Of a stretch of 32,968 nt of DNA, positions 1,850 to 32,283 are shown piece after piece (position 1 is the stretch's first letter; the number at the start of each line of letters is the position of its first letter). The notes under the pieces were generated by a model. It was not told the origin of the DNA. It was given only the letters and a program-made list of their open reading frames with translations, and searched no databases. Source of the DNA: Candidatus Micrarchaeota archaeon (GTDB lineage Archaea > Micrarchaeota > Micrarchaeia > Anstonellales > Anstonellaceae). The stretch is from contig DUFS01000027.1 of the NCBI GenBank assembly GCA_013331805.1, positions 26,555 through 59,522 on the forward strand, read 5' to 3'. A program made the position numbers and the translations under genes.

Positions 1850-1904
1850 GGCTTGGGTTATAATTCTAATTTGGACATATGCCCTATCCTTGAGTCGCCC
1901 CTGC

Positions 1905-2148: not shown

Positions 2149-2172
2149 ATGAATTTCACCACTTTGCCGAAT

Positions 2173-3747
2173 TTAAGCCTTCTTGCCCTTGTAGCATCCC
2201 AGATCGCATATGTCAAATCCGAACGTTCCTTGCTTTTCCAGCCGTTGGAGAAGTTCCTTGACAACAATTCCCCTGATTCTCATGTATTCTTCCCTTCCCA
2301 GCTCCACATTCCCAATGGCATAGCTTTTGTTTTTTGTATTGAAGCAGAACATAGAGTCAGAAAGCCCTTCGCAATTATGGCAGAACATGCTCCGATAACA
2401 GTTCTTGCAGCAGTCCATGTCCATGCATTGGCTGACCTTGACGCAGTCATGGCAGCGGAGGGAGTAAGAGGAATCCATCATCAGCACGCTGGAGCCGAAA
2501 ACCGAGTCGCAGTTCTGCACGTGAGTGGTGTAGCCGCATTTTTTTGAATAGGTTGCATCCCCCACCCTGAAGCAGTCGCTTGAGTAGTATTTCATCGGAG
2601 TTTCAGGTATGTTGCTGTTGCCTCCAGTGTCATAGTCCACATTGTAGAAAGCGATCTGGCCCAATTTTGATATAATCCCTTCGACGCTCGCATTTTCCAA
2701 GCCGCCAATGGCTATGTGGCGCCTGGCAGTCTCAAACGCCTCCTCCCGGGTCGCCATTCTTCCCCTGGGGACGTATTTGCACCAGAAATAATTGCAATAA
2801 TGCGATTCGCTTCCAAAAGCAGTCTTGATTTCCCTCACAGGCTCGCTTCGCTCGGACAGGAATTTTTCATACCTACCCATGGGCGATAGCTCCTTCCCGA
2901 AGATGAGCCTGGTGGCCGACCTGAACGCGCCCTCCGCGATGCCTTTTTCCCCATCTCCCTTATTGCCTTTAGGAACCGATATCCCGGCCAGTTCAGCCCC
3001 CTTCGGGATGCCAAAATCGAACAGCGAATGGAATTTCTTGTGCTTGACCAGGTATTCGCGGCTTTCCTCAAGCAGCTTTTCCTTTATGGCAAGGTATTTT
3101 TCCTTGGGCAATTCCAGGTTGCCAATGCAATATTTCCTGTTCTGGAGGTTGAAGGAAAACATAGCCTGAGCGCAGCCTGTGCAATCGAAGCAGAAGAACA
3201 TGTCCGAGCAATTCACATTCAATGAGCATTCAAAGCACCTTGCAATGTCCGCGCCCCCAGTGATCCTGATGAGATGGTTCCCACGAATCAAAGTATTGCT
3301 CCCAAACACATTCGAACTATCCATGCGGACAAAAGACGAATATGCAACGTATTTTGAAGAAACGACAGTGTGCGAGTTTTTGACATAAAAGCTGTCAGAG
3401 CAATTGTCTGCGTTTTCCACGAATTTCGAGTTCCCGAAAATCTTGTTCCCTGCATAAAGGAATCTGTCAGACAGGGCGGAGATTATGGAGTCGAGGTCCT
3501 TGACTTCGTTGATCCCCAGGGCGAGGTATTTTTTCCCATAGTCAACCTCGTCCTCTGAAACGAAACCAGCCCCATCGCAGTACCTGTCCGAGCCAACAAT
3601 GACGCCCTTTCCTGAAACTGCCGACCTTTTTTCCTTGTAGGGCATGTAGTGGCGCTCGTTAAGGTAGGCGGCATATCCGTCAAGCTCCCCGATTTCACCG
3701 CCAAAAATGACCCTACAGGTCTTTTTCCACGCATCGTTAAGGTCCAT
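2173..3747 (-). CDS. Cys-rich two-module repeat protein, paralog 2 of 3 (family not recognised)
   Basis: 524-codon ORF. ATG 3747 directly abuts the TAA (3748-3750) of the upstream paralog. Head MDLNDAWKKTCRVIFGGEIG, linker GINEVKDLDSI, caps AQAMFSFNLQNRKYCIGNLELPKEKY and SDSMFCFNTKNKSYAIGNVELGREEY. No TM segment or signal peptide. Confidence 0.88.
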   Translation of the reverse strand: MDLNDAWKKTCRVIFGGEIGELDGYAAYLNERHYMPYKEKRSAVSGKGVIVGSDRYCDGAGFVSEDEVDYGKKYLALGINEVKDLDSIISALSDRFLYAGNKIFGNSKFVENADNCSDSFYVKNSHTVVSSKYVAYSSFVRMDSSNVFGSNTLIRGNHLIRITGGADIARCFECSLNVNCSDMFFCFDCTGCAQAMFSFNLQNRKYCIGNLELPKEKYLAIKEKLLEESREYLVKHKKFHSLFDFGIPKGAELAGISVPKGNKGDGEKGIAEGAFRSATRLIFGKELSPMGRYEKFLSERSEPVREIKTAFGSESHYCNYFWCKYVPRGRMATREEAFETARRHIAIGGLENASVEGIISKLGQIAFYNVDYDTGGNSNIPETPMKYYSSDCFRVGDATYSKKCGYTTHVQNCDSVFGSSVLMMDSSYSLRCHDCVKVSQCMDMDCCKNCYRSMFCHNCEGLSDSMFCFNTKNKSYAIGNVELGREEYMRIRGIVVKELLQRLEKQGTFGFDICDLGCYKGKKA

Positions 3748-5316
3748 TTATTTCATCGCCCCGATGTTGTATATGTCCCATTTCAGGCTTTTGGTCTTGT
3801 CGATCTCGTCTGCTATCTGCCCCACAAGGATGCCCTTTGTCTTTGCGTAAGTTTCCTTGTCCAACGGCGTATTCCCAATGTGATGCCTTCTCCCCTTCAT
3901 GTTGAAGCAGAACATGCAGTCCTGCAAGGCCTCGGAATTGTGGCAGAAGTAGGAGTCCGAGCACTTAAGGCAGCCGTCCAGCTCAAAGCAGCGGTTCAGG
4001 TAAAGCGAGTTGTAGCTCTTGAGTGAGAATTGGGACTCAATCACGCGGTTGCAGCCATAAACGTATTTTGAATGGAGCGAAATCGAGGTCATGGCGGTGT
4101 TTTCCGAATAGGTCGCCTCAAATCCCTTGTATATGTTCACGCTGGAAAGAACGATAGGATTTTGCATTACATTGCGATTCTCCCCAGCCCAAAACTCTGA
4201 TGTAAAATAGGCTATTTTGTCCAATCCCTTTTGGATGGAGCTTACTGACCCAATTTCCCTTTCATCTAATGCCAATTTACCCAGCTCAAGTGCATCAAAA
4301 ACCCTGACTGTTCTTTTCCTTGGCATTTCAGATATCATTCCGAAGTTAAGGGGGATGCACGTAGTTGTTCCGAACGCAGTCTTCACTTCCTCCACTCTGA
4401 TGGTGTTTTCGCCAAGCCATCCCTCGAGCTCCGATATGCGTCTTGGCTGCTTTCGGAAAAGTATGGAATAGGTGGAGGCAAATCCCCTTTCAACCGGTTC
4501 CACATCGCTTCCAACTTCTGGGGTCTGCGGATTTATTTTCGGAAGTGTGCTGGAAAGCCCTTTCGGGCAAAGCTCATACAGCGATGGATAGCGCCCGTTT
4601 TTTTCAAGTTCCTCGGCGATTTCTGCCAGCAGCTTTGCCTTAAGATCTCTGAATTTTTCCTTTGGAAGCCGGAGGTTTCCTATCAGATGGCTCTGGTTTT
4701 TCTGCCCGAATGAGAAAAGCAAATCATGGCATCCTACGCAATTGAAGCTGAAGTATATGTCAGATGAATCTCCTAGAAAATGCGATTCAAAGCAGCGATG
4801 GAGGTTTATCCCTGCCACCACGCGCGCGAGATGTTCGCCGTTTGCAGTATAGCCGGACCCGAAGACATGCTTGCTTCCTCTCCTTATCATGAAAGAAGAG
4901 TGGATATGCGAAGACTGCTCTATATTAGTTGAATTATATACGAATTGGGAATCCAGGATTATGTCGGACTTTTCAACGTGGGCGGAGTTGCCTAGATAGC
5001 GGTTGCCGGAATATTCTAGTTTTTCCCTAAGAGCTGCGACGAGCGAGTCAATGTCCTTAATTTCATTAATATTCAGCCCGTATTCCCTGTTAGTCGTGAG
5101 CTCGTCCTCGGAAATGAACCTTGCCCCTTGCGGATAAGCGTCCCTTGCCACGATGACTTCCTTTCCGCTGGCATGGGACCTGCGCTTCGCCACTGGAAGA
5201 AGATACTCTGACAAATAATCCTCGTACTTGCCTAGTCCTCCAAGCTCGCGCCCGAACAGCGCCCTGCATGTGCCTGCCCAGCTTTTCTCCAATGCCCTTT
5301 CAAGCTCAGGATCCAT
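3748..5316 (-). CDS. Cys-rich two-module repeat protein, paralog 3 of 3 (family not recognised; N-module largely Cys-depleted)
   Basis: 522-codon ORF. ATG 5316 lies 2 nt after the TAA (5319-5321) of the PLD gene. Head WAGTCRALFGRELG, linker LNINEIKDIDSL, caps HDLLFSFGQKNQSHLIGNLRLPKEKF and QDCMFCFNMKGRRHHIGNTPLDKETY. Confidence 0.88.
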   Translation of the reverse strand: MDPELERALEKSWAGTCRALFGRELGGLGKYEDYLSEYLLPVAKRRSHASGKEVIVARDAYPQGARFISEDELTTNREYGLNINEIKDIDSLVAALREKLEYSGNRYLGNSAHVEKSDIILDSQFVYNSTNIEQSSHIHSSFMIRRGSKHVFGSGYTANGEHLARVVAGINLHRCFESHFLGDSSDIYFSFNCVGCHDLLFSFGQKNQSHLIGNLRLPKEKFRDLKAKLLAEIAEELEKNGRYPSLYELCPKGLSSTLPKINPQTPEVGSDVEPVERGFASTYSILFRKQPRRISELEGWLGENTIRVEEVKTAFGTTTCIPLNFGMISEMPRKRTVRVFDALELGKLALDEREIGSVSSIQKGLDKIAYFTSEFWAGENRNVMQNPIVLSSVNIYKGFEATYSENTAMTSISLHSKYVYGCNRVIESQFSLKSYNSLYLNRCFELDGCLKCSDSYFCHNSEALQDCMFCFNMKGRRHHIGNTPLDKETYAKTKGILVGQIADEIDKTKSLKWDIYNIGAMK

Positions 5317-14584: not shown

Positions 14585-17341
14585 TTACGAAACCAGTATG
14601 CTCGGCTTTCCTGGCAGGGCATTTTTCGCCTTTGGAACGCCGGTTTCCTCTTCCATGCAGAATGCGATTGCAGCGCCAAATTCCCCCTCCAGCAGCTTGA
14701 TTGCGCTTTTGAGCGCTTCCAGCTCGAATACGGCTGGCTGGGTCTGCCCAAGAGAGCCGGCATTCTTCATGTAGCTTGCCAGCACCTTGGCAGCGGCTGC
14801 TGCATTCGGCTTGATTTCCGGGTCTGCCATTGCGGTTTTCATTGCTGCGTCGAATTTCCTTTCATCCGAGGCAATCTGCCTAAGCTTCCTTTTCCATTCC
14901 GAAGCGACAAAGAGCTCAATTTTTGATGGCTTTTCAATTTTCAGCAGCTTGAGTATGGATGAAACGTCCTCCCTTACCTTCACTATGTAGCTTTCCGCCT
15001 CTTCCAGCCCCTCGTCCACCTTGCCCTGGTCGCCAGTGGGCATCGGTGCAATGGAAACAAACGCAGCATCCTTCACATAATGCTTGGTTCCCAGCTGCTG
15101 CCACATCTCTTCTGCCGCATGCGGAATGAACGGGGCGATGAGAGGCACCCAAAGCTCGAAGCACTCGCGCAGCTTGGGCTTTGCAGCCCTCTTGAGGTAC
15201 CACTGCAGGTCGTTTACGGTGTTGTAGAAAAGCTCCAGGGAAAGGTCGCGAAGCTGGAAGTTTTGGTACATTTTTTCCGCTGCAAGCGCCCGCTTGTGCA
15301 TGCGGGAAAGAATCCACCTGTCCGCAAGGTCGTGCTTCCCTTCATCCTTCCCAGCCGCGTATTTCAGCATGGCCGCCTGCAGGAATTTCAGGCGCGATAG
15401 CACGCCTTCCACTGCCGGCCTGTTGAAATCCGTATCCTGGGCAAGGTCAGCGCCGGACACCACCACAAAGCGTATGGCGTCTGCCCCGAATTCCCTTATT
15501 GCCGCCCGGATGGGCATTATGTTGCCCATGCTCTTGCTCATCTTCTTGCCGTCCATGAGCACAAATCCGTTGGTGACTATCTGCCTGGGCCAAAGCTCGC
15601 GCGGGAAAATTGCGGCATGGTTGAATATGAAAAACGTCAGGTGGTTGTGCACCAGGTCGGTTGCCGAATGGCGCGAGTCGTGCGGATACCAGTAGGAAAA
15701 GCATTTGCGCATTTCCTTTGCCTCTTTGGGGAGCTTATGTGCGCTCCCCTTGCCAAGGAACACATAGTCAAAAAGCTCCTCGCTCAGCTGATCGGGCTTC
15801 ATCTTCTGCGCAATGTGGGCTATGGTGTAGTAAGCCATGTATATGGTGGAGTCTGAAAGCGCCTCGATCATCTTTGTTTCGTCAAACGGGAACCGTGTCC
15901 CTAGGCCAATTGACCGCGTGCAGGCCTTTTCCCGAAGCCAGCCTATGGTGTATTCGTATTCCTTTAGCGCCTTTTCCGGCAATATTCGCATTCCTGCCAG
16001 GCATTGCCGGGCAAGCGACTTCCATTTTCCGTCCCCGTAGTCGATGAACCACTGGTCCTTGACCAGCTTCACCCCGACCAGCCCCCCGTAGCGGCTGTAA
16101 ATCGGCCCGTTTTGAATATCATAGAGCTGCATTGCGGTTCCTTCAGCAATCATCTTTGCGCGGATCTTCTCCTTTGCTTCCACTCCCTTCATTCCGGAAA
16201 ATTCGCCCTTCACCATGATTCCTGTGTGGGCTTCCTTGCGGTAGATTTCGTCCGTTGCTTCCTCGGCTTTGGGGTCGTTCTGGTCCTTCACGCCCATCTG
16301 CTCCACAATGTCCTTGGCAGGGAATTGCGAAAAGCCCTCGAGCTTCAGCACCTGGATTAGCGGAACCTTTTTGAGCAAGCCTGAATCGCGAAGGGCAAGA
16401 TAGTCGTAAGGCGCATGCGCAGGAACCGACATCACCACTCCCGTGCCTGCCTTGGGATCAACAAACTCTGCCGGCAAAAGGGGCAATAGCTCGCCCGTGA
16501 GCGGATTTTTCGCAGCCTTCTCCATCAATTCGCCTGCTGTGAATTCCTTTTCCACTATAAGCGGCAGCTGCATGGAAAGGGGGCCGACCGCATCCTTTGC
16601 AACATAGTATTTCCGCTTGCCGTCGCTTGCGCGAACGTATCTAGCGTTGGGATTCAGCCAGATGTTGGTGACGCCGTAAATAGTTTCAGGCCTGTAGGTC
16701 TCGCAGGCAAGGAACCCTTCCTCAAACTGGAAGAGAACTGCGGTAACCTCCTCAATCTGCGGGTCAACGTCCCCTTTCGTGTCATGTGCGCCTACTGCTG
16801 CCTGGGAAATCGGGCACCAGGGAACAGGGTGCTCGCCCTTTTTTATGAATCCTCTTTCCTTGAGCTTGGCAAACTGCCAATGGATGAACCTGTTGAACTG
16901 GGGGTCAAAGGAAAAGAATTTCCTTCGCCAGTCAATGGAGTAGCCCATTTCCCGCATTCCCTCCTCTATTTCTCGGGAAAAGTAGGCAACCAGTTCCTTT
17001 GGGTCTGTGAGCGTATCGGTCACGGCAGGGGAAATGCCGTAAACCTTTTCGAAAATTCCGAATATTTCCTTGTCTCGCTCGGCAATGCGCCTTGCCATTG
17101 CAAGAATCGGCGTTCCGGTCACATGAAAAGCCATTGGGAAAAGCACGTTCCTGCCCTTCATCCTCATGTAACGGGCATAAATGTCTGTTGTTGTGTAGGT
17201 CCTGCCGTGCCCGATGTGCTGCGGCGAGTTCGGGTAGGGGAAGGCAGGGGTCAGGAAGAATTTGCCATCACAGCCCTCCAATGGCTGGAAAAGGCGCTTG
17301 TCCTCCCAGGCCTTCTGCCATTTTGCGTCGGAATTCTGCAT
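14585..17341 (-). CDS. leuS: Leucyl-tRNA synthetase, archaeal type
   Basis: From ATG 17341 (MQNSDAKWQKAWEDKRLF) the product is 918 aa, with HIGH motif PQHIGHGRTY and KMSKS motif KKMSKSMGN. The track ORF continues 353 codons further upstream (to 18400), but only as a stop-free antisense run through the histidine-kinase gene. Confidence 0.93.
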   Translation of the reverse strand: MQNSDAKWQKAWEDKRLFQPLEGCDGKFFLTPAFPYPNSPQHIGHGRTYTTTDIYARYMRMKGRNVLFPMAFHVTGTPILAMARRIAERDKEIFGIFEKVYGISPAVTDTLTDPKELVAYFSREIEEGMREMGYSIDWRRKFFSFDPQFNRFIHWQFAKLKERGFIKKGEHPVPWCPISQAAVGAHDTKGDVDPQIEEVTAVLFQFEEGFLACETYRPETIYGVTNIWLNPNARYVRASDGKRKYYVAKDAVGPLSMQLPLIVEKEFTAGELMEKAAKNPLTGELLPLLPAEFVDPKAGTGVVMSVPAHAPYDYLALRDSGLLKKVPLIQVLKLEGFSQFPAKDIVEQMGVKDQNDPKAEEATDEIYRKEAHTGIMVKGEFSGMKGVEAKEKIRAKMIAEGTAMQLYDIQNGPIYSRYGGLVGVKLVKDQWFIDYGDGKWKSLARQCLAGMRILPEKALKEYEYTIGWLREKACTRSIGLGTRFPFDETKMIEALSDSTIYMAYYTIAHIAQKMKPDQLSEELFDYVFLGKGSAHKLPKEAKEMRKCFSYWYPHDSRHSATDLVHNHLTFFIFNHAAIFPRELWPRQIVTNGFVLMDGKKMSKSMGNIMPIRAAIREFGADAIRFVVVSGADLAQDTDFNRPAVEGVLSRLKFLQAAMLKYAAGKDEGKHDLADRWILSRMHKRALAAEKMYQNFQLRDLSLELFYNTVNDLQWYLKRAAKPKLRECFELWVPLIAPFIPHAAEEMWQQLGTKHYVKDAAFVSIAPMPTGDQGKVDEGLEEAESYIVKVREDVSSILKLLKIEKPSKIELFVASEWKRKLRQIASDERKFDAAMKTAMADPEIKPNAAAAAKVLASYMKNAGSLGQTQPAVFELEALKSAIKLLEGEFGAAIAFCMEEETGVPKAKNALPGKPSILVS

Positions 17342-17357
17342 GAGTTTTTGGTTCTGG

Positions 17358-17370
17358 AAAAGAATAAAAG
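17358..17370. promoter_or_regulatory. Single A/T box shared by the divergent leuS and histidine-kinase genes
   Basis: AAAAGAATAAAAG is the only A/T-rich element in the 51-bp spacer. Its core lies about 25 nt from the leuS ATG (17341) and about 27 nt from the kinase ATG (17393). Confidence 0.45.
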
Positions 17371-17392
17371 GCACGCTGACGTATGGTGATGG

Positions 17393-18553
17393 ATGCCGAG
17401 GAAACCAGCAATCCAAAGGAAGGAATCTGCCAAAGAGGCAAATCCGCCATCTTCTCCTGCAAGCGACATACTCAAGGAAGCTGACAAGCTGAAAACCCAG
17501 CTCTCGGTCATCCTCGAACAGAGCCCGATGATAATAATAATCGCCGACACCGAGGGCAGGATAGAGTACGTCAACAGGAAGTTCAACGATGTCACGGGCT
17601 ACTCGCTTGCGGAAGTTGCCGGGAAAACCCCTCGTGTGCTCAAATCCGGAGAAACCCCTTTGGAAGTCTACAAGAGCCTGTGGGAAACAATAACTTCGGG
17701 CAACGTGTGGACTGGGGAATTCCACAACAAGAAAAAAAGCGGCGGGTATTACTGGGGCCACGCCTCCATTGCACCGATTAAAAACTCGGAGGGCGAAATT
17801 ATCAACTTCATCGGAATGGAGGAGGACTTCACCGCCCGCAAGAACGCCGAGGACGCGCTTATTCAGGCTCACAAAAGGGTGGAGGAGCTTTCCCAGGCTA
17901 AGGACATATTCATCCAGAACATCACCCACGAGCTCAAAACGCCACTTTCGGTGATATTGGGGAACATCTCGCTTCTCCGGGACATAGCCCCAAAGGAAAG
18001 CGCGAAGGAATGGACGCGCCTGCTTGACATGGAGGAGCGCAACGCCATCAGGCTTCGCCGCTCGATAGAGCAGATACTTCAGCTTGGGAAGCTGGATTCC
18101 GCGGAGCTCAAGAAAGAGCCAGTGCAGCTGGACAAGCTGCTGCAGGATGTCTATCTTGAGCATCTGCCCATCGCCAACATGAAGGGAGTGGACCTGGACC
18201 TCTCGCTTGACAAATTCGAGCTTCAGGCCGACAGGGAGCTTCTTCGCCTGGCAATATCGAATTTCGTATCCAATTCCGTAAAATTCACTGACAAAGGAAG
18301 CGTTGAGCTTTCCATGAAAGTGCTGGGCGACAGCGTATTGGTAAGGGTCTCGGACACCGGCATAGGGATTTCGAAGGAAAACCAGTCCAAGCTTTTCCAA
18401 AAGTTTTTCAAGGCCGATCCGAATGCGCCAGGAAGCGGCATCGGGCTTGCGCTCTCATACACGATAATAAACAAGCACGGCGGCAAAATCAGCGTGAAAT
18501 CCGAACTGGAAAAGGGAAGCGCTTTCGAGATAGTGCTGCCGAGGGGGGGATGA
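17393..18553 (+). CDS. Cytoplasmic PAS-domain sensor histidine kinase
   Basis: 386 codons with no TM segment. PAS region (IIIADTEGRIEYVNRKFNDVTGYS...GEFHNKKKSGGYYW), H-box ITHELKTPLSVI, N-box SNSVKFT, G1 DTGIGI, G2 GSGIGLAL. Confidence 0.9.
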   Translation: MPRKPAIQRKESAKEANPPSSPASDILKEADKLKTQLSVILEQSPMIIIIADTEGRIEYVNRKFNDVTGYSLAEVAGKTPRVLKSGETPLEVYKSLWETITSGNVWTGEFHNKKKSGGYYWGHASIAPIKNSEGEIINFIGMEEDFTARKNAEDALIQAHKRVEELSQAKDIFIQNITHELKTPLSVILGNISLLRDIAPKESAKEWTRLLDMEERNAIRLRRSIEQILQLGKLDSAELKKEPVQLDKLLQDVYLEHLPIANMKGVDLDLSLDKFELQADRELLRLAISNFVSNSVKFTDKGSVELSMKVLGDSVLVRVSDTGIGISKENQSKLFQKFFKADPNAPGSGIGLALSYTIINKHGGKISVKSELEKGSAFEIVLPRGG

Positions 18554-23858: not shown

Positions 23859-24299
23859 ATGGCAGAGGCAAAACAGAAAAGCGAGCTCGTCGCAAGGCGC
23901 CCTCAATCGGTCGACGACGAGCTCATCGAGCTTTGCAAGATGATGCGGATCATGTCCGAGCGCGACGTTGACGCCACACTGTCCCAGGTGCTAAAGACCA
24001 TGATGGTGCATACTCGCAGCGAGCCACTTGGGGGAAGTGAGCTTTCCAAAATATCCGGGATAAACCGCATAACAATCATACACCATCTCAAGAGGCTGGA
24101 AGAGGCGGGCTTTGTGGCGAGAAAGGAGGGCAAGTACTGCATGCGCGTGCAGACTGCGGAAGGCATGCTGATGGAATTCCGCAAGGAGATGGATAGGGCG
24201 TTCACCGAAATGGACGAGCTTGCCCGCGAAATAGACACGGAATTCGAACAGATGGAAAGGCAGATGCTGGAGCGCGGCAAAAGGCGCAGGCTGCCCTAA
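23859..24299 (+). CDS. Winged-helix (ArsR/MarR-like) transcriptional regulator with coiled-coil tail; candidate regulator of the chaperone operon
   Basis: 146 codons. HTH region GGSELSKISGINRITIIHHLKRLEEAGFVARKEGKY. First gene of the grpE-dnaK cluster, 5 nt before grpE. Confidence 0.7.
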   Translation: MAEAKQKSELVARRPQSVDDELIELCKMMRIMSERDVDATLSQVLKTMMVHTRSEPLGGSELSKISGINRITIIHHLKRLEEAGFVARKEGKYCMRVQTAEGMLMEFRKEMDRAFTEMDELAREIDTEFEQMERQMLERGKRRRLP

Positions 24300-24304
24300 A
24301 AGGT

Positions 24305-24847
24305 ATGTTTTTCATGGTTGACGGAAATGCCCCCACCGAGGCTCCAGTTCCCGAGGAAGATTCAGGGAAAGAGGACAGCCTTTCCGCAAAGCTTGCCGTG
24401 CTTTCGGACCAGCTGTTGCGGCTGCAGGCCGAGTTTGACAATTACAAGAAGAGGACGGCAAAGGAGAAGGAGGCAGTTTCGCTTGCTGCTGAGGCGAAAA
24501 TGATGCAGCGCATGCTGCCGATATACGAGGAAATCTCGATTGCGGAAAAGGAGGCTCAGAAAATCCCGGACCAGGCGGTCCGCAAGGGCATTGCCCTGGT
24601 GCTTTCCAAGCTGCGCTCGTCATTCGAAAAGGACGGCCTGCAGGAAATGAAGCTTGTGGGTGAGAAATTCGACCCCTTCAGGCACGAGGCGGCAATGCAC
24701 GAGCTTTCCGATCAGCCTGAAGGGACAATAATGAACGTGATAAAGAAAGGATATCTCTTCAGGGGGGAAGTGCTGCGCCACGCAATTGTTTCAATTTCAA
24801 GCGGTAAAAAGGCTGAAGAAAATGCCAAAAAGGAGGGAGAAAAATGA
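24305..24847 (+). CDS. grpE: Nucleotide exchange factor GrpE
   Basis: 180 codons. Signature LRLQAEFDNYKKRTAKE, then C-terminal KFDPFRHEA...GYLFRGEVLRHAIV. Confidence 0.92.
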   Translation: MFFMVDGNAPTEAPVPEEDSGKEDSLSAKLAVLSDQLLRLQAEFDNYKKRTAKEKEAVSLAAEAKMMQRMLPIYEEISIAEKEAQKIPDQAVRKGIALVLSKLRSSFEKDGLQEMKLVGEKFDPFRHEAAMHELSDQPEGTIMNVIKKGYLFRGEVLRHAIVSISSGKKAEENAKKEGEK

Positions 24848-25176
24848 ACAGCGCTGTCATAATCAAGTTCGAGGCGGACGCAATCGCCGCACAGGATGAC
24901 ATCTTGCCGCAATTCAACGCCTACATGCAGCAAAGTGCGCACTCCCCCTCCTTTGTGCATGATAAGGAGGGCTACTTCCGCCTTTCATATGATGAAAAAG
25001 CCGGCATTTCGTCCGCAGGTGTGATGGAGCTTGGCAAGTTTTTGCAGACATCCGGCTTCACAGTGACTGCGATAAGGAGCGCATCAGCAGGCGAAAGCGT
25101 GCTTGCAACAGAAGTGAAATACGAAAAAAGCGGCAAGGAGGGAAGCGTAGTGCTTTCCACTGTCAGGATTTATTGA
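24844..25176 (+). CDS. Hypothetical 110-aa protein inserted between grpE and dnaK
   Basis: Its ATG overlaps the grpE stop (ATGA at 24844-24847) and it ends 23 nt before the dnaK ATG. It is the only long ORF filling the gap. No motif recognised. Confidence 0.55.
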
Positions 25177-25199
25177 TACTATTAATAGGGGTGGTCAAC

Positions 25200-27071
25200 A
25201 TGGCAAAAATAATCGGAATCGACCTGGGCACATCGAACTCGGCGGCAGCCGTGCTTGAGGGCGGCAGGCCGGTGATAGTTCCATCAGCAGAAGGCGCCAC
25301 GCAGTACGGCAAGGCATTTCCTTCGTATGTGGCATTCACAAAAGAAGGCACCCGCCTTACCGGAGAGCCTGCGCGAAGGCAGGCTGTTGCCAATTCGGAA
25401 GCCACATTCACGGCATTCAAGCGCAAGATGGGCACTGACTTCAAGTACAAGGCGCAGGGCAAGGAATACCGGCCTCAGGAGCTCTCGGCTTTCCTGCTCC
25501 AGAAAATAAAGCAGGACGCGGAAATGTACCTTGGCGACAAGGTGGAAAAGGCAGTGATAACCGTTCCGGCCTACTTTGACGACAACCAGCGCCAGGCCAC
25601 AAAGGACGCCGGGGCGATTGCCGGCCTGGAAGTGGTCCGCATAATCAACGAGCCCACTGCAGCGGCATTGGCTTACGGGCTGGACAAGGCCGGAAAGGAC
25701 CAGAAAATCGTGGTCTTTGACCTTGGAGGCGGCACCCTGGACGTGACAATAATGGATTTCGGCAAGGGCGTTTTCGAGGTGAAATCGACCTCGGGAGACA
25801 CTCAGCTTGGCGGAACCGACATGGACAACGCCATAGTGGACTACCTTGTCGGCGTTTTCCTGCGCGAGACAGGGATCAATGTTCAGGAGGACAGGCAGGC
25901 AATGCAGCGGTTGCGCGAGGCGGGCGAAAAGGCGAAGATAGAGCTTTCAACGGTTATTGAGTCGGAGATCAACCTGCCCTTCCTGTCAGCAGACAAGTCG
26001 GGTCCCAAGCATTTTGTCCACAAGCTCACCCGGGCAAAGCTCGAGGAAATCGTCGAGCCCATTGTGAGCAGGTGCAAAAGGCCGCTGCAGCAGGCGCTTT
26101 CAGACGCCAAGCTCACCCCAACGCAGATCGACAAGGTGATACTTGTGGGCGGGCCCACCCGCATGCCAATAGTCCAGCGCTTTACAGAAAGCGCATTCGG
26201 GAAAAAGGCAGAGGGCGGCGTGGACCCCATGGAATGCGTGGCAATGGGCGCTGCAGTGCAGGCAGGCGTGATTTCGGGCGATGTGAAGGACATACTGCTG
26301 CTCGACGTGACCCCCCTTGCGCTCGGCATTGAAACTCTTGGCGGAGTATTCACCAAACTGATCGAGCGCAACACCACAATTCCGACAAAAAAGTCGCAAA
26401 CATTCTCAACTGCGGCAGACTCCCAGACTTCTGTCGAGGTGCACGTGCTGCAGGGCGAAAGGGCAATGGCGCGCGACAACGTGGAGCTTGGAAAATTCGC
26501 CCTTGTTGGCTTGCCGCCAGCTCCCCGCGGCGTTCCCCAGATAGAGGTATCTTTCGATATAGACGCCAACGGAATCATACACGTATCCGCAAAGGACATG
26601 GGAACCGGCAAGGAGCAGAAGATCCAGATAGTCGCGCCCCACAAGATGGACAAGTCCGAAATAGAAAAGAAAATGCGCGAGGCGGAGCAGTTTTCAGAAA
26701 CTGACAAGAAGCTGCGGGAAGAGGTGGAGCTCAAGAACGAAGCCGAATCGCTTGTTTACACCTCGGAAAAGACGGTTGCTGAGTTCGGGGACAAATTCCC
26801 TGCAGACCTCAAGGCTGCGGTGCAGGATGCCGCCAAGGAGCTGAAAGACGCACTTGCGAAAAATGACAGCGCTGTAATAAAGCCTGCTGTTGACAAGCTG
26901 AAAAAAGCGCTTCAGGACGCGGGCGCCTCGCTATACAAGGGCGGTCAGCAGGGAGGGGGTCCGGGAACAGGCGGTCCCGGAGATGCTCCAGACTTCGGGG
27001 CAGGCGACTCGGGCGGCACGAGCGGCCCTGGCAACGAAAACGTCTACGATGCCGATTACAAAAAGGTTTAA
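25200..27071 (+). CDS. dnaK: Hsp70 chaperone DnaK
   Basis: From ATG 25200 ([14 protein letters not shown]), preceded by GGGGTGG. Motifs DLGGGTLDV and [11 protein letters not shown], with a Gly-rich C-terminal tail. The track ORF start (25173) adds 9 implausible residues. Confidence 0.96.
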
Positions 27072-27565
27072 CGCAGCACAACAAGGTTTGCCATTCCCCT
27101 TCTCTTCCTTTCAACAATTCCCTTTTGCTCCAGCCTGTCAAGCATTCGCGAAACTTTCACCTTGGAATAGTCAAGCTCCTTAATGACATCAGACTGGAAG
27201 GCAGAGCCGCCCTTTTCCTGCAGGACTCCGATTATCCTTTTCTCATCGGCGTCAAGAGTTGAAACGTCAATTTTCTTGGTTTGCTTCCGCTCGACCGCAA
27301 TTCTTTCTTCCCTTTCAGGCTCAGGCTTTTTGCGCAACTGGAAGAAAATCCAGCCGACAATAAGGGCTATCACCAATATCAGCACGGCGATCACAATATT
27401 CTGGGTTTCCACCACTTTCTCGTGCGGGCAGTTTATGCTGGAATCTGTGCAGCTTTCTGCCGCAAGGTCGTTGAGCGTGCGATTATAGAAAAAAATAGCC
27501 AAAGCGAAAAGTATCAGGAGTATTGCGATTACCCCTGGCAAGGTTTTGTTTTCAGCCAAATTCAT
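27068..27565 (-). CDS. Membrane-tethered winged-helix regulator (2 TM, extracytoplasmic Cys-x6-Cys-Pro-His loop, cytoplasmic wHTH)
   Basis: 165 codons. TM1 is [19 protein letters not shown], the loop is [29 protein letters not shown], and TM2 is [21 protein letters not shown] followed by RKK. The C-terminal wHTH is [50 protein letters not shown]. The gene is divergent from the cop genes. Confidence 0.75.
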
Positions 27566-27586
27566 GGAACTACCCGAAACTTCTCC

Positions 27587-27645
27587 CCTGTGAAACTAGT
27601 TTCACAGGTACCTATTTAAACTGTTCAGTTTCCGCTCTGTTCAGT
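27587..27645. promoter_or_regulatory. Divergent promoter/operator region: perfect 22-bp palindrome, TATA box, 9-nt direct repeats
   Basis: CCTGTGAAACTAGTTTCACAGG at 27587-27608 is a perfect palindrome. TATTTAAA lies at 27613-27620. CTGTTCAGT occurs at 27621-27629 and 27637-27645. GGGTGAT (27658-27664) precedes the copZ ATG at 27670. Confidence 0.6.
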
Positions 27646-27669
27646 CTGGCAGCAGCCAGGGTGATTGGA

Positions 27670-27864
27670 ATGAAAAAAACATTCAAGGTAAGCGGCATGC
27701 ACTGCCCAAGCTGCGAGAAGGTACTGCAGATGGACATTGGCGAAATAGCCGGAGTCAAGTCCGTCAAGGCGAATTACAAAGCCGGAACTGTAGATGTGAA
27801 TGGCGAAGGCTTTGACGAGTCGGCAGTGAAGAAGGCTATAGTGCAAAACGGATACAAGGTCTGA
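27670..27864 (+). CDS. copZ: Copper chaperone, single heavy-metal-associated (HMA) domain
   Basis: 64 codons from ATG 27670: MKKTFKVSGMHCPSCEKV... (GMxCxxC). The upstream part of track ORF 27523-27864 covers the promoter region and is not coding. Confidence 0.88.
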   Translation: MKKTFKVSGMHCPSCEKVLQMDIGEIAGVKSVKANYKAGTVDVNGEGFDESAVKKAIVQNGYKV

Positions 27865-27868
27865 TAAA

Positions 27869-28801
27869 ATGGAAACCAACAAGTCAATAAACATAGCCGG
27901 GATGACCTGCAGCTCCTGCGAGCGGCTGATAACCAAAGCAGTGGAATCAGAAGGCGGCAAGGTCCATAGCATAAGCGCCACCTCTGGCAAGGCAGTGGTG
28001 GACTATCAAGAAGGAACACTCGAGAGGATAAAAACAGCTATCGCTGCATCTGGCTACAGCGTGCTTGACGGCGCTGGCAAGACCGTGGTAGTCGAGCCAT
28101 TTGAGGCCGAGATAAAGATTTTCCTAAAAAAGCTTGTTGACGGGGAAAAAGAGCTCAAAACAGAGCGCAAGATAGTAAAAATGTCCATGCTTTCCATTCT
28201 AGCCCTTGCGGCAATAGGGTTTTTCTTCTACATGACATTCTGGCGCGGCTTGCCAGGCATCGGCGCAAGAATCCCGTTTTTATTCTACTCAGGAGTTTCG
28301 GCAGTTGCCATCACTGCCGCAGTGGCACACTACAACTCACACCGTTTTCAATTCACCTGCATGGAGGGCATGATGACCGGCATGACAATCGGCATGATAG
28401 CTGGCTTCCTCTTTGGTGCAGTTGTTGGGGCGACAAACGGCATGTTCATAGGCAGCGTTTTCGGAATGGCGGTCGGCATGATTGCAGGCGCTTACTGCGG
28501 AAAATGCTGTGGCATTATGGGCGTAATGGAGGGCATGATGGCCGGCTTGATGGGCGGGACAATGGGTGCCATGCTCACGGTGATGATGATTGCCGACAAC
28601 CTGCTGCTGTTCATGCCACTTTTTGTCATATCATGCGTGGCGATATTGGCTGGCCTGACTTACATGATATATCATACGGCGGGCAAGCGCTCCGAAGGGC
28701 AGCTGATGCTATTTTCAGATTTCTTTTTGATCTGCCTTCTTCTTTCAGTAGTTACAACAGTAATAGTAATATTCGGGCCAAAAAGCCCAGTAGCAATATA
28801 G
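27869..28801 (+). CDS. HMA domain fused to a polytopic Met/Gly/Cys-rich membrane domain (uncharacterised)
   Basis: 310 codons. N-terminal INIAGMTCSSCERLI HMA fold, then about 6-7 hydrophobic segments containing CMEGMMTGMTIGMIAG, GMAVGMIAGAYCGKCCGIMGVMEGMMAGLMGGTMGAM. Confidence 0.8.
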   Translation: METNKSINIAGMTCSSCERLITKAVESEGGKVHSISATSGKAVVDYQEGTLERIKTAIAASGYSVLDGAGKTVVVEPFEAEIKIFLKKLVDGEKELKTERKIVKMSMLSILALAAIGFFFYMTFWRGLPGIGARIPFLFYSGVSAVAITAAVAHYNSHRFQFTCMEGMMTGMTIGMIAGFLFGAVVGATNGMFIGSVFGMAVGMIAGAYCGKCCGIMGVMEGMMAGLMGGTMGAMLTVMMIADNLLLFMPLFVISCVAILAGLTYMIYHTAGKRSEGQLMLFSDFFLICLLLSVVTTVIVIFGPKSPVAI

Positions 28802-28813
28802 GGGGTGTTATTG

Positions 28814-29473
28814 ATGGATGAGATTGAACAAAAATTGCCAGACGGTTTGGAGCAAAAAAAACTGGCAGATGGCTTGGAGCAAACTGAATTGGAAGCAGCG
28901 CCTAGCCCTGGGCTCAACGCTGAGAAAATTTTCTGGGGCCTGACAGTGTTCGCAGTGGCCGGGCTCTTCATGTTCTTTGCCTTTGCAGGCTTGGTGGCTC
29001 CGGTCAGCGCCGCGGTGCAGCAGGCCGTTCCACAGCCTTTATTGCCCAAAGCGGCTCAGCCTTCCGGCTCTGTTTCAGGGGGGCAGCTTGCGCCAGTGGC
29101 AAACGGCATTCAGGAAATCACGCTGTCAGTGCAGGGCGCGAATTACATGCCCAATCCCATTCGCGTGAAAAAGGGGATTCCTGTGAGAATCACCGCTGAC
29201 CTCAGCTCGGTTCGCGGCTGCGCAAGCAGCATAGTAATACCTGATTTTGGTGTGCGAAAGACCTTCAGGCAGGGAGACAACTTTGTGGAATTCACTCCGG
29301 ACAAGTCAGGCACCTTTGATTTCGGCTGCTCTATGTGGATGTACACCGGCAAGATAGTGGTTGAGGAAGCCGACGGTTCAGTGGCCCAGTATTCCGGCGC
29401 GCCAACAGCGCAGCAGGCTGGCGGCACACCCTCATGCGGCGCAGGCGGTGGCGGCTGCGGATGTGGAGGCTGA
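28814..29473 (+). CDS. Membrane-anchored cupredoxin-like protein with a Cys/Gly-rich C-terminal tail
   Basis: ATG 28814 is preceded by GGGGGTG (the track starts at GTG 28805). TM anchor IFWGLTVFAVAGLFMFFAFAGLV. Cupredoxin-like beta domain ITLSVQGANYMPNPIRVKKGIPVRI...RGCASSIVIP...GTFDFGCSMWMYTGKIVV. Tail SCGAGGGGCGCGG. Confidence 0.75.
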   Translation: MDEIEQKLPDGLEQKKLADGLEQTELEAAPSPGLNAEKIFWGLTVFAVAGLFMFFAFAGLVAPVSAAVQQAVPQPLLPKAAQPSGSVSGGQLAPVANGIQEITLSVQGANYMPNPIRVKKGIPVRITADLSSVRGCASSIVIPDFGVRKTFRQGDNFVEFTPDKSGTFDFGCSMWMYTGKIVVEEADGSVAQYSGAPTAQQAGGTPSCGAGGGGCGCGG

Positions 29474-29518: not shown

Positions 29519-31681
29519 ATGAAAAAGGAAGACTTCACCATAAACGGCATGCACTGCGCCAGCTGTGCCTCGCTGATAACCAAGGGGATTTCCAAGCTGC
29601 CTGGCGTCCAAAAGGCAAATGTGAACTATGCCGCAGCGCGCGCGCAAGTGGAATATGACGAATCGCTTGTCAGCCAGCAGCAGTTGCTGGAAAAAGTTGC
29701 TTCTCTGGGCTACAGCGCAGTGCCTGGCTTTGATTCCGAACGCGAGAAAAAGGAGCGGGCGCATGAAATCTCCGAACTCAAGCTGAAGCTTCTCTTTGGC
29801 GCAGTGCTCTCAATTCCCGCAATTGCACTCGGCATGTTTCTTATGGACTTTCCAAACCGGCTATGGCTGCTGTTCTTCCTTTCAACACCTGTCCAGTTCA
29901 TCGTTGGCGCAGGCTTTTACCAGGGCGCAATATCGGCAGCACGCAACAAGACGGCATCAATGGACACGCTCATCGCCGTTGGCACAACTGCAGCCTACCT
30001 TTTCTCCTTTGCAGCGCTTTTCGGCTTTGTGGAAGAGCAATATTTTGAGGTGAGCGCAAGCTTGATTACGCTTGTAATATTGGGCAAATACCTTGAAGCT
30101 GTGGCAAAAGGCAGGACCAGCGACGCAATAAGGAAGCTCATGGACCTTTCCCCAAAGATGGCGCACGTGATCAGGGGCGGCAAGGAAATCGAGATTCCTT
30201 CCTCAGAGGTGATTGCAGGGGACCACGTGCTGGTCAAGCCGGGCGAGCGGATTCCGGTTGACGGCATTGTTCTTGAAGGCGACTCGTCCGTGGACGAAAG
30301 CCTGGTTACCGGCGAGTCCATCCCGGTTGAAAAAGCAAAAGGCAGCAAAGTGATTGCAGGCTCAATAAACAAGCACGGCACGCTCACATTCAAGGCAACT
30401 GCGGTTGGCAAGGGCACTGTTCTCGCCCAGATAGTCAGGCTGGTTGAGGAGGCGCAGGGCAGCCGCGCTCCCATCCAGAGGTTTGCCGATACAATAAGCG
30501 CATATTTTGTCCCAGTGGTCATCGTGCTTGCAATCCTCACGTTTTCCTACTGGTATTTCGTGGCATCAGCCGGATTCTCGTTCGCGCTGATTCTTGCGGT
30601 TTCAGTGCTTGTGATAGCCTGCCCCTGCGCGCTCGGCCTTGCCACGCCGACCGCGATAATGGTGGGCACAGGCTTGGGTGCGCAAAAGGGCATACTGATA
30701 AAGAACGCAGAGGCCCTCGAGACCATGCACAAGATAAAAGCGGTGATATTCGACAAGACCGGCACCATAACCGAAGGCAAGCCAAAAGTGACTGACATCG
30801 TGCCAATCACAAAAATTTCGCAGGCAGAGCTTCTTTCCATTGCAGCATCGCTTGAGAAGCCATCCGAGCATCCGCTTGCAGAAGCCATAGTGAACGGGGC
30901 AAAAGAACGCAATGCGGCAATCTCAAAGGTAAGCGACTTCAAAAGCCACCCTGGAAAGGGCGTGAGCGGTAAAATCGGGAATGCAGCTTACCAGGTGGGC
31001 AGCTTCCGCCTCTTTGAATCCATAAAAGGCAAGGTCCTGTCGCATTCGCAGAAGCTGGAAAATGAGGGCAAGACCGCCATGTTTGTCGGCAAGGGCAAGG
31101 AGATAATCGGGATAGTCGCCGTAGCCGACAATGTAAAGCAGACTTCGCAGCAGGCGGTTTCAGAGCTTCGCAAGCTCGGAATCGAAAGCTACCTTCTCAC
31201 TGGCGACAACGAGCGTACCGCTAAAGCCATATCTGCAAAGGCCGGGATAAGAAAATTCTTTGCCAAGGTAATGCCTGACAAGAAGGCAGACTATGTCAAG
31301 AAGATGCAGTCCAAGGGCAAAGTGGTGGCAATGGTGGGCGACGGGGTTAACGATGCGCCTGCGCTTGCGGCTGCCGACATAGGGATAGCAATGGGCTCGG
31401 GAACAGACGTGGCGATGGAATCCGGCAGCGTGGTGCTGATGCGCTCCGACCCCATGGACGTGCCGCGTTCCATCAGGCTTGGCAGGGCGACAATGGACAA
31501 GATAAAGCAGAACATGTTCTGGGCGCTCATCTACAATATCATTGGCATACCGATTGCTGCCGGCGTCCTCTATTCATCCACAGGCTGGCTCCTTTCGCCA
31601 ATACTAGCTGGCGGGGCTATGGCGCTTTCATCAGTGTCGGTTGTCACGAACGCGCTAACGCTGAAATGGATAAGACTGTAA
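29519..31681 (+). CDS. copA: Copper-translocating P1B-type ATPase
   Basis: 720 codons. N-terminal HMA GMHCASC, then TGES, CPC (ACPCALGLATP), DKTGTIT, SEHPLA and GDGVNDAPAL. Strong GGAGGT (29507-29512) lies 6 nt before the ATG. Confidence 0.96.
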   Translation: MKKEDFTINGMHCASCASLITKGISKLPGVQKANVNYAAARAQVEYDESLVSQQQLLEKVASLGYSAVPGFDSEREKKERAHEISELKLKLLFGAVLSIPAIALGMFLMDFPNRLWLLFFLSTPVQFIVGAGFYQGAISAARNKTASMDTLIAVGTTAAYLFSFAALFGFVEEQYFEVSASLITLVILGKYLEAVAKGRTSDAIRKLMDLSPKMAHVIRGGKEIEIPSSEVIAGDHVLVKPGERIPVDGIVLEGDSSVDESLVTGESIPVEKAKGSKVIAGSINKHGTLTFKATAVGKGTVLAQIVRLVEEAQGSRAPIQRFADTISAYFVPVVIVLAILTFSYWYFVASAGFSFALILAVSVLVIACPCALGLATPTAIMVGTGLGAQKGILIKNAEALETMHKIKAVIFDKTGTITEGKPKVTDIVPITKISQAELLSIAASLEKPSEHPLAEAIVNGAKERNAAISKVSDFKSHPGKGVSGKIGNAAYQVGSFRLFESIKGKVLSHSQKLENEGKTAMFVGKGKEIIGIVAVADNVKQTSQQAVSELRKLGIESYLLTGDNERTAKAISAKAGIRKFFAKVMPDKKADYVKKMQSKGKVVAMVGDGVNDAPALAAADIGIAMGSGTDVAMESGSVVLMRSDPMDVPRSIRLGRATMDKIKQNMFWALIYNIIGIPIAAGVLYSSTGWLLSPILAGGAMALSSVSVVTNALTLKWIRL

Positions 31682-31719: not shown

Positions 31720-32283
31720 ATGGGAAAAATTTACGGGATGCTTGTATTGCTTGCGCTATTCGGCGCTTTTTTTGCATCAAGCGCAGAAGAAATCGCAACC
31801 GGAAAGGCACTCGTGGATGCAAAGGCCGACTGCGGCAAACTGAGCCAAGACCAACTGGAATCAATAGGTGAATACATCATGGAACTTCGGCACTCAGGGC
31901 AAGCGCATGAATACATGGACAACATGATGGGCGGCGAGGGTTCAGCCAGCCTCAAGAATGCACACATCCAGATGGCGCAGGTCATGTACTGCGGAAGGAC
32001 CGATGTGCCCCTGACGTACGGCGGCATGATGGGCATGGAAATGATAGGCGGCTACGGGGCAGGGGCGGCTGGTAGCTACGGAATGATGGGCGCAGGAGCG
32101 CGCTCTGGGATGATGGGCTTTGCTTCCGGCTCGCCAGGCTACGGCATGATGGGCTACGGCTATCCTTCCTACGGCTGGGGCATCACCGACATTCTCGTCG
32201 TGATATTGTTCATCGGCCTGATACTGCTGGTCTATGCCCACGCACTGGGCAAGCTGAGGGAGGGCAAGGAAAAAAGGAAGTGA
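31720..32283 (+). CDS. Exported, C-terminally anchored protein with a Met/Gly/Tyr-rich low-complexity region (putative Cu(I)-binding)
   Basis: 187 codons. Signal peptide MGKIYGMLVLLALFGAFFASSA, a helical region with HEYMDNMMGGEGS, then YGGMMGMEMIGGYGAGAAGSYGMMGAGARSGMMGFASGSPGYGMMGYGYPSYGWG. C-terminal TM ITDILVVILFIGLILLVYAHAL followed by KLREGKEKRK. Confidence 0.7.
   Translation: MGKIYGMLVLLALFGAFFASSAEEIATGKALVDAKADCGKLSQDQLESIGEYIMELRHSGQAHEYMDNMMGGEGSASLKNAHIQMAQVMYCGRTDVPLTYGGMMGMEMIGGYGAGAAGSYGMMGAGARSGMMGFASGSPGYGMMGYGYPSYGWGITDILVVILFIGLILLVYAHALGKLREGKEKRK

Follow-up and report, generated by a model that had tools for sequence, protein, structure and literature searches.

To our knowledge, the known one-component copper sensors (CueR, CsoR, CopY, ArsR-type proteins, ComR and archaeal CopR) are all cytoplasmic, and otherwise it is two-component systems that detect copper outside the cell. 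A review of bacterial copper signaling likewise describes one-component sensors that are all cytoplasmic, in addition to two-component and extracytoplasmic function (ECF) systems. Transmembrane transcription regulators are common in archaea according to the survey of Demey et al. (2023), in which the words "copper", "metal", "MarR" and "DPANN" do not occur; ArnR and ArnR1 are the characterized archaeal membrane-bound examples. Here we analyzed a stretch of 32,968 nucleotides (hereafter, the window) from Candidatus Micrarchaeota archaeon (GenBank assembly GCA_013331805.1, contig DUFS01000027.1, positions 26,555 to 59,522 of the forward strand), the source material of which is groundwater metagenomes. 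We focused on a gene at 27068-27565 on the minus strand, encoding a membrane-anchored winged helix-turn-helix (wHTH) regulator of 165 amino acids (aa), and on the adjacent copper-export operon that begins with copZ. The combination of this regulator with a 14-bp site at copper-export promoters, found here and in hundreds of DPANN genomes, points to an undescribed kind of copper regulator. Co-localization with cop genes and a conserved operator within their promoters, the two features expected of a cop-operon regulator, are both present in the sequences, and the assignment of the protein as a predicted membrane-anchored transcription factor, with TGAAACTAGTTTCA as its operator and the cop cluster as its regulon, is well supported on these grounds. 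The metal is probably sensed outside the cell by the regulator.

The start codons of the regulator gene and of copZ (ATG at 27670) are separated by a 104-bp spacer, which contains a perfect 22-bp palindrome at 27587-27608. It consists of the inverted repeat CCTGTGAAACT/AGTTTCACAGG and includes the conserved 14-bp core TGAAACTAGTTTCA at 27591-27604. A perfect 11 + 11 palindrome is expected by chance ~0.008 times in 33 kb, and the 14-bp core has exactly one copy in the window. To extend the analysis beyond the window, related loci of the regulator were numbered (L001 onwards), and the best 80 of more than 567 were used for locus counts. GAAACNNGTTTC was present in 66 of the 80 loci, usually as a single copy, against ~1.6 occurrences expected in total over 811 kb, and the matches nearly always read TGAAACTAGTTTCA. 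Furthermore, GAAACTAGTTTC was the only invariant block in the spacers of seven related Micrarchaeota loci. The initial annotation, made from the window alone, had singled out the palindrome as a regulatory element, and these counts place it well beyond chance. In Micrarchaeota the operator lies in the divergent spacer, 24-34 nt upstream of the regulator ATG, and in other clades it is found just after the regulator stop codon, ahead of the cop genes.

Other readings of the palindrome were rejected. An RNA hairpin or terminator is contradicted by conservation at the level of the sequence without compensatory changes, by variants of the central dinucleotide (CA, TG) that break the symmetry, and by the position upstream of the TATA box in most clades. 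No RNA family was found by Rfam in 26900-28000 and, as is to be expected in an archaeon, a scan for sigma-70 promoters and terminators gave no useful information. A general DPANN promoter motif does not agree with a single copy in the 33-kb window and usually one copy per ~10-kb locus. Control of the convergent dnaK by the operator was also rejected, since the operator is not near dnaK and the linkage to dnaK is confined to Micrarchaeota.

The association between operator and regulator was also recovered in the reciprocal direction. The DNA pattern alone, i.e., TGAAACTAGTTTC followed by 19 unspecified bases and GTTTC, was used as the query in a scan of 185,579 species genomes. The scan revealed at least 120 matching stretches, with ~17 chance matches expected over the whole collection. 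Among the 120 matches listed, nearly all of them from DPANN, a regulator homolog was located in the same 8-kb stretch in 98, usually immediately adjacent to the pattern, and cop genes were located in 63. The few bacterial matches lack the regulator and are probably due to chance.

Comparison of gene neighborhoods gave a similar picture. The co-occurrence survey of homologs with copA that the initial annotation had called for placed HMA, CopA or cupredoxin genes within ≤6 kb of the regulator in 59 of 80 loci, covering at least six DPANN lineages; CopA was found in 41, HMA in 48 and cupredoxin in 38 of the 80. When the cop proteins of the window were used in tblastn searches, the close relatives L001-L010 were all found to keep the divergent copZ, the HMA-membrane protein, the cupredoxin and CopA, and in most of the more distant relatives the regulator is followed by HMA, cupredoxin and CopA genes on the same strand. 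The proposed link of the regulator to cop genes and to the palindrome was thus recovered from the neighborhood, from the conservation of the operator at cop promoters and from the reciprocal scan.

We also examined the geometry of the promoters. The spacer contains a single TATA-like box, TATTTAAA (TTTAAATA on the other strand), at 27613-27620; it is the only A/T box in the 104 bp and is apparently common to the divergent regulator and copZ promoters. In relatives the box is found at the same offset from the palindrome, with the consensus TTTATAAG. The layout is rigid, consisting of the palindrome, ~9 nt, the TATA box, 2 nt and a third half-site, GTTTC(A). GTTTC was present 15-26 nt downstream in 55 of 75 palindromes and at exactly +19 in 45 of 75, against a chance level of 2.4%. 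In the window, the zone of the third half-site just downstream of the TATA box (27623-27632, plus strand) comprises GTTCA at +19 (27623-27627) and a perfect GTTTC at +24 (27628-27632), and Micrarchaeota relatives carry GTT[GT]C at +19. The palindrome is most often located 39 nt from the ATG, in agreement with leaderless transcripts; in that case, the spacing would place the TATA box at -30 to -23, the palindrome at about -52 to -39, abutting the TFB recognition element (BRE), and the third half-site at -20 to -16. For copZ in the window, spacing rules predict a start near 27643 with the palindrome at -56 to -35, again abutting the BRE, and a GGGTGAT Shine-Dalgarno-like element is located 4-10 nt before the copZ ATG. 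For the regulator promoter, the same rules predict a start near 27590 and would place the palindrome at about -18 to +4, where repressors classically bind, and the third half-site zone within the BRE.

Additional elements were observed in the spacer. Two direct repeats, CTGTTCAGT, to which the initial annotation had drawn attention, are present on the plus strand at 27621-27629 and 27637-27645. The first contains the degenerate third half-site and the second, judging from the TATA spacing, would overlap the predicted copZ transcription start at ~27643; the repeats are absent from all relatives and were rejected as a conserved element. A possible auxiliary GAAAC half-site, for which the evidence is weak, is located in the 5' untranslated region of the regulator (27576-27580, plus strand), with GTTTC at a similar distance in L004, L008, L009 and L012. 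This extra GAAAC/GTTTC lies ~11 nt beyond the palindrome and in several relatives directly abuts the ATG as GTTTCATG, so that it may be either an auxiliary operator half-site or merely translation-start context. Four Micrarchaeota relatives (L002, L003, L005 and L006) have a longer regulator-copZ spacer of ~145-160 bp. In these spacers, a second TTTAAA-like box is located ~48 nt upstream of copZ, together with a conserved CGCCTACGCGC-like element, and copZ may be driven there by a separate promoter or by an additional one.

To characterize the regulator, we compared it with known families and predicted its structure. The C-terminal part was assigned to Pfam DUF7343 (PF24034) at residues 106-164, with 59.6 bits against a cut-off of 27.6, and this domain is precomputed for nearly all homologs of the regulator. 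MarR_2 (PF12802) was also above its cut-off (35.3 vs 27) and MarR (PF01047) below (23.1 vs 24.6), while ArsR, TrmB, BlaI-like and other helix-turn-helix (HTH) models of Pfam remained under their thresholds. The scores for HTH_5 (16.9, cut-off 22) and NF033788 (20.2, cut-off 55) place the protein outside ArsR/SmtB, and that for Penicillinase_R (18.6, cut-off 22.6), together with the lack of C-terminal cysteines such as those of the CxCx4CxC copper/zinc site, outside CopY/BlaI-MecI. No NCBIfam family matched above its cut-off. TRASH, YHS and Lrp domains gave no match in Pfam or NCBIfam, which separates the regulator from archaeal CopR, and the absence of a Pfam match to Trans_reg_C separates it from ToxR in the narrow sense. 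The regulator corresponds to the broad definition of transmembrane transcription regulators (Demey et al. 2023), which asks for a predicted DNA-binding domain together with one or more TM regions, as it has a wHTH and two hydrophobic helices in one polypeptide.

An AlphaFold2 model was built from a 47-sequence alignment, with a mean predicted local distance difference test (pLDDT) score of 78. It consists of a helix at residues 8-38 (transmembrane (TM) helix 1 and its extension), a tight turn at 39-46 that is bounded by both cysteines, and a helix at 47-79 that begins at the Pro-His and runs into TM helix 2, followed by a linker and a confident wHTH. TM helix 1 comprises residues ~9-27 (27485-27541; this and the following segments are on the minus strand) and was recognized as a hydrophobic segment in agreement with the model and with the positive-inside pattern of the family, which also predicts a cytoplasmic location for the short N-terminus. 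The extracytoplasmic hairpin tip, residues 28-56 (27398-27484), is formed in the model by extensions of the TM helices joined by the tight turn. TM helix 2 (residues 57-77; 27335-27397) is followed by R78-K79-K80 and by a disordered linker (residues 78-105; 27251-27334), which is charged and poorly conserved, with pLDDT <50 at residues 83-96 and with length and sequence that vary in the alignment. The cytoplasmic wHTH domain (residues 106-165; 27071-27250) has the order helix-strand-helix-helix-strand-strand, with pLDDT >90. Foldseek matched it to the wHTH cores of MarR, MecI/BlaI and ArsR/CzrA/SmtB proteins, with root-mean-square deviations (rmsd) of 1.0-1.6 Å over 60-67 residues; beyond this generic core, no full-length structural analog was found by Foldseek, and a sequence search of the PDB gave no match. 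The flanking dimerization helices of soluble MarR proteins (~140 aa) are not present, as the 60-67-residue core is preceded by the TM hairpin and the disordered linker. Invariant residues of the wHTH in the alignment are G120, Q124, K135, V136, K137, R140, D143, E146, R156, G157, M158 and N160, and in terms of sequence conservation the invariant putative recognition region (K135, V136, K137, R140 and D143) matches the invariant operator.

The candidate metal site, C39-x6-C46-P47-H48 (27422-27451, minus strand), was read directly from the codons: C39 at 27449-27451, C46 at 27428-27430, P47 at 27425-27427 and H48 at 27422-27424. Neither Cys nor His is found in cytoplasmic residues 78-165, which include the entire wHTH domain, and this leaves the hairpin tip as the only plausible location for a metal site. 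Among 188 homologs, the loop has a mean of 0.6 Lys/Arg in comparison to 3.1 in the 15 residues after TM helix 2. Given this bias and the necessity for the DNA-binding domain to be cytoplasmic, a location of the loop outside the cell, with both protein ends inside, is supported. Two TM helices enclosing a Cys/His loop, the outward orientation of that loop and a C-terminal MarR/ArsR-like winged helix had all been proposed in the initial annotation; Pfam, AlphaFold2 and Foldseek agree with this architecture and the homologs with the orientation. The 165-aa protein, the Cys, Pro and His residues, the RKK after TM helix 2, the 104-bp spacer, the palindrome, the shared box and the repeats that it had described were likewise all found, and the coordinates that it had stated were correct.

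We examined the distribution of the regulator family and the diversity of its loop. A word-indexed search identified 114 relatives from Micrarchaeota/Anstonellaceae, whose annotation does not go beyond "uncharacterized membrane protein" or "MarR family". An exhaustive profile search revealed 986 cluster representatives (50% identity) at E ≤ 1e-10; the best 150 of these matches are nearly all 150-180 aa long and align with the regulator over the full length. A scan of one genome per species yielded the more than 567 loci mentioned above, and the best 80 are all from DPANN metagenome-assembled genomes, i.e., Micrarchaeota, Woese-, Nano-, Pace-, Aenigmat- and Iainarchaeota, with a few doubtfully labeled bins. 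Exactly two cysteines are found in the loop of 180 of 188 homologs. Among 140 mutually diverse representatives, 136 contain the Cys pair and the remaining four are N-terminally truncated; the spacing between the two cysteines ranges from 3 to 14 residues, and a proline usually follows the second. The motif includes His in 100 and Met in 61 of these 136 proteins. In Micrarchaeota it reads S-C-T-D-x4-C-P-H, in most Woese- and Nanoarchaeota S-C-[TS]-H-G-x2-C-P-M-[WY], and in a third clade C-x8-12-C-P-[AV]-H. Cys-Pro-His is thus swapped for Cys-Pro-Met between clades, and a second His is found elsewhere in the loop when Met is present. Such a His/Met swap with relocation of the His is, as a sequence pattern, typical of Cu(I) sites, from which we infer that the loop may sense copper. 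Two regulator paralogs, each with its own operator, are located within a few kb of each other in L029 (1141-1647 and 5998-6498), L038 and L042, and it is possible that paired paralogs reflect different metals or targets.

Taken together, we lean toward the interpretation that the regulator is a copper-released repressor of the adjacent copper-export operon (copZ, HMA-membrane protein, cupredoxin and copA). In this model, the regulator would bind the palindrome TGAAACTAGTTTCA as a dimer or higher oligomer, abutting the BRE/TATA of the cop promoter. Through the further half-site downstream of TATA, the bound protein would bracket the TATA box and block both promoters. Without copper, the bound regulator would keep TFB and RNA polymerase from the cop promoter, and in Micrarchaeota, where the palindrome is predicted to cover -18 to +4 of the divergent promoter, it would also repress its own gene. 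External Cu(I) or Ag(I) would bind to the Cys2(His/Met) tip and alter hairpin packing or oligomerization, and this change would lower the affinity for DNA, so that the operon is derepressed. Repression is considered more likely than activation, since a half-site is found between the TATA box and the predicted start, the TATA boxes are close to the consensus, and the palindrome is predicted to cover the start of the regulator's own transcript.

Several points weigh against this interpretation. A position just upstream of BRE/TATA, as occupied by the palindrome, is classic for archaeal activators. The disordered linker cannot relay a rigid change, and the signal must therefore act through oligomerization; signaling of this kind fits copper-induced binding, i.e., activation, as well as release. 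The Cys pair of the tip might just as well form a disulfide, either structural or redox-active, and a minority of homologs with CPY, CPF or CPI have no His or Met next to the Cys-Pro, which leaves the Cys pair as the only strictly defining element. In the window itself, the third half-site is degenerate at +19. About one quarter of the loci (21 of 80) have no recognizable copper gene in the available flank; ~9 of these 21 are cut off on the relevant side, and others have candidate metal-handling genes directly after the operator, namely a DUF411 (CopG-like) gene, an ArsP_1 permease with an N-terminal Cys motif, or genes for small membrane proteins that begin with a CC motif. Finally, the locus was not found in metatranscriptomes from the same studies.

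The activator position of the palindrome leads to the question as to whether copper at the external tip could instead drive dimerization, in the manner of ToxR/CadC-type regulators, after which the wHTH would bind the palindrome, recruit TFB/TBP and activate the cop operon; in Micrarchaeota the regulator would in addition repress its own divergent promoter, resulting in negative feedback. The rigid spacing of the palindrome immediately upstream of BRE/TATA agrees with such a mechanism, and the flexible linker favors proximity- or avidity-driven signaling. There is precedent as well, as the characterized membrane-bound regulators ToxR, CadC and ArnR are activators, and in Pyrococcus, CopR remains on the DNA and switches on copA upon copper shock. 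Polymerase recruitment is, however, hard to square with the extra half-site at -20 to -16, a typical repressor position, and promoters with near-consensus TATA boxes should not need an activator. We consider activation possible but doubtful.

The universality of the two cysteines, at a spacing that varies from 3 to 14 residues, and their position on both sides of the tight turn that joins the helices, an arrangement that would suit a disulfide staple, raise a different possibility, i.e., that the pair is a switch reporting extracytoplasmic thiol redox, in which a disulfide within or between hairpins would alter DNA binding. Its trigger could be copper-catalyzed thiol oxidation, which has been reported for E. 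coli MarR; a periplasmic disulfide operates in CadC, and oxidized MarR was among the top Foldseek matches. A disulfide would nevertheless have no need for the His-to-Met swap after Cys-Pro and the relocation of His that are typical of Cu(I) ligands, the regulon is specific for copper and does not consist of redox-repair genes, and the organisms are mostly from groundwater and sediment, where external thiols would stay reduced if, as we infer, these habitats are anoxic. A redox switch appears improbable to us. The long disordered linker, as in protease-processed regulators, and the HMA-fused membrane protein co-conserved in many of these operons would also be compatible with a TM hairpin that is a mere anchor, the signal arriving via a cop-encoded membrane protein or through proteolysis that releases the winged helix. 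The conserved Cys-Pro-(His/Met) tip and the ETQN-like segment would then be needless, and the tip motif is retained from locus to locus although the partner genes differ, so that we regard this explanation as very improbable. The copper-released repressor thus remains the interpretation that we prefer.

The regulated operon begins with copZ (27670-27864, plus strand, as are the following genes), encoding a 64-aa HMA copper chaperone (Pfam HMA, 4e-13) that matched NCBIfam CopZ models at E ~1e-10, below their curated cut-offs. It is followed by a gene for an HMA domain fused to a Met/Gly-rich multi-TM protein of 310 aa (27869-28801), in which the HMA match covers residues 7-63 only. The multi-TM region has no Pfam match and full-length relatives are found in cop clusters of 15 of 80 loci; the protein is a candidate for an uncharacterized copper permease or membrane chaperone. 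The third gene (28805-29473) encodes a cupredoxin-like protein of 222 aa (Pfam Cupredoxin_1, 6.5e-10), which has an N-terminal TM anchor and a Cys/Gly-rich C-terminal GGGGCGCGG tail, and is a regular member of operator-controlled clusters. The last gene, copA (29519-31681), encodes a P1B-type Cu(I)/Ag(I) ATPase of 720 aa with an N-terminal HMA domain (Pfam E1-E2_ATPase, Hydrolase and HMA). Its translation contains the motifs CPC, YN and MALSS, which we take, by the established motif classification, to denote a P1B-1 Cu(I)/Ag(I) pump. Downstream, at 31720-32283 on the same strand, lies a gene for a 187-aa Gly/Met-rich protein that has a signal-like N-terminus and a TM helix at the C-terminus and does not belong to any real Pfam family. 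Its relatives adjoin regulator or cop genes in L029, L038, L042, L077, L086, L125, L143, L183 and L195, and a role in Cu(I) binding through its Met-rich sequence is possible.

In loci without CopA or HMA, the operator was found before other conserved genes (L024, L028, L030, L033, L041, L047, L050, L056 and L057). These include DUF411 in L030 and L047, the ArsP_1 permease in L024, and also CPLC-motif membrane proteins. Since the operator is located ahead of DUF411, ArsP_1 and CC- or CPLC-motif genes, the regulon is wider than the classic cop genes.

On the other side of the regulator, the dnaK stop codon (27069-27071) overlaps the regulator stop codon (27068-27070) on the opposite strand. The region 23859-27071 comprises a gene for a 146-aa ArsR/TrmB-like HTH protein, grpE, a 110-aa open reading frame and dnaK, and adjoins the cop locus in L001, L003, L004, L006 and L011; the 146-aa protein may be the heat-shock regulator of this lineage. 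Elsewhere in the window, Pfam gave no match at E ≤ 1e-4 for three consecutive open reading frames of 535, 524 and 522 aa (242-5316, minus strand). A class I aminoacyl-tRNA synthetase with a Leu-type editing domain (14585-18400, minus strand) is listed as 1271 aa, and its synthetase domains begin only at residue ~360, due to either an unexplained N-terminal extension or a TTG start assigned too far upstream.

No description of this regulator family was found in the literature on DUF7343, COG2512 and DPANN copper regulators, and no characterized transcription factor from DPANN archaea was found in the literature that we searched. If our interpretation is true, the regulon would be the first defined for DPANN archaea, with a single operator sequence across the sampled lineages. 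For these uncultured organisms with small genomes, it represents the first predicted triplet of regulator, operator and regulon. Moreover, a protein of 165 residues that both senses external copper and controls transcription would be the simplest transmembrane metal-signaling device described so far, and a tractable model for the passage of a signal from a tiny external site to DNA. Because the architecture of the operator is exact and is retained across phyla, the prediction lends itself to immediate testing in vitro. In addition, the operator can be used as a probe for further DPANN copper-handling genes, including the uncharacterized membrane proteins that follow it.

In comparison to known systems, the sensor module and the signal of the regulator would be new among the transmembrane one-component regulators, and its operator is precisely defined. 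We give even chances to the possibility that it is the founding member of a new metalloregulator class, namely a one-component copper sensor integrated in the membrane, which would detect extracellular Cu(I)/Ag(I) at a minimal Cys2(His/Met) site on the hairpin tip and would act on transcription directly from the membrane, clamping TATA between the invariant palindrome and a third half-site. The bacterial ToxR, CadC and TcpP resemble it in having an extracytoplasmic sensor, an anchor and a winged helix on a disordered linker in one polypeptide, and in acting on DNA from the membrane; CadC, in addition, has extracytoplasmic cysteines that are functional. They differ in having one TM helix and a folded periplasmic domain, whereas the regulator has two TM helices and a tip of ~28 residues. 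In addition, the order of domains is reversed, the wHTH being C-terminal and MarR/DUF7343-like rather than OmpR-type, the promoters depend on archaeal TBP/TFB, and copper is the presumed signal. ArnR and ArnR1 of Sulfolobus acidocaldarius are, like the regulator, archaeal, membrane-bound HTH proteins that act directly on promoters. However, ArnR has an N-terminal HTH and C-terminal TM helices, controls archaellum and pilus genes under the influence of phosphorylation, has no link to metals, and shows no detectable sequence relation to the regulator.

The initial annotation had considered archaeal copper regulators to be soluble, and those that we found in the literature are indeed soluble Lrp-HTH/TRASH proteins. 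Archaeal CopR/CopT (an Lrp-type HTH with TRASH) are comparable to the regulator in being divergent from copA/copZ-type genes with a bidirectional promoter, and CopR represses its own gene, as is proposed for the regulator. In contrast, CopR is a soluble octamer that detects cytoplasmic copper via its C-terminal TRASH domain, and it wraps DNA at a weakly conserved semi-palindromic site. CopY (BlaI/MecI-like), ArsR/SmtB and MarR repressors share the same winged-helix core (rmsd 1.0-1.6 Å) and are small dimeric repressors that act on palindromes at metal-resistance promoters. They differ in being soluble, in having their Cys/His metal sites in the cytoplasm and in carrying dedicated dimerization helices, and nothing outside the 60-residue core aligns with the regulator. 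CusS, CopS and PcoS have, as is predicted for the regulator, an outward sensor between two TM helices; they report extracytoplasmic Cu(I)/Ag(I) and induce export genes. Their sensor is a folded periplasmic domain of ~130 residues in a histidine kinase that works with a separate response regulator, whereas in the regulator the output domain is fused directly, with no kinase. By analogy, the regulator may be regarded as a one-polypeptide counterpart of the periplasm-sensing CusS/CopS two-component systems.

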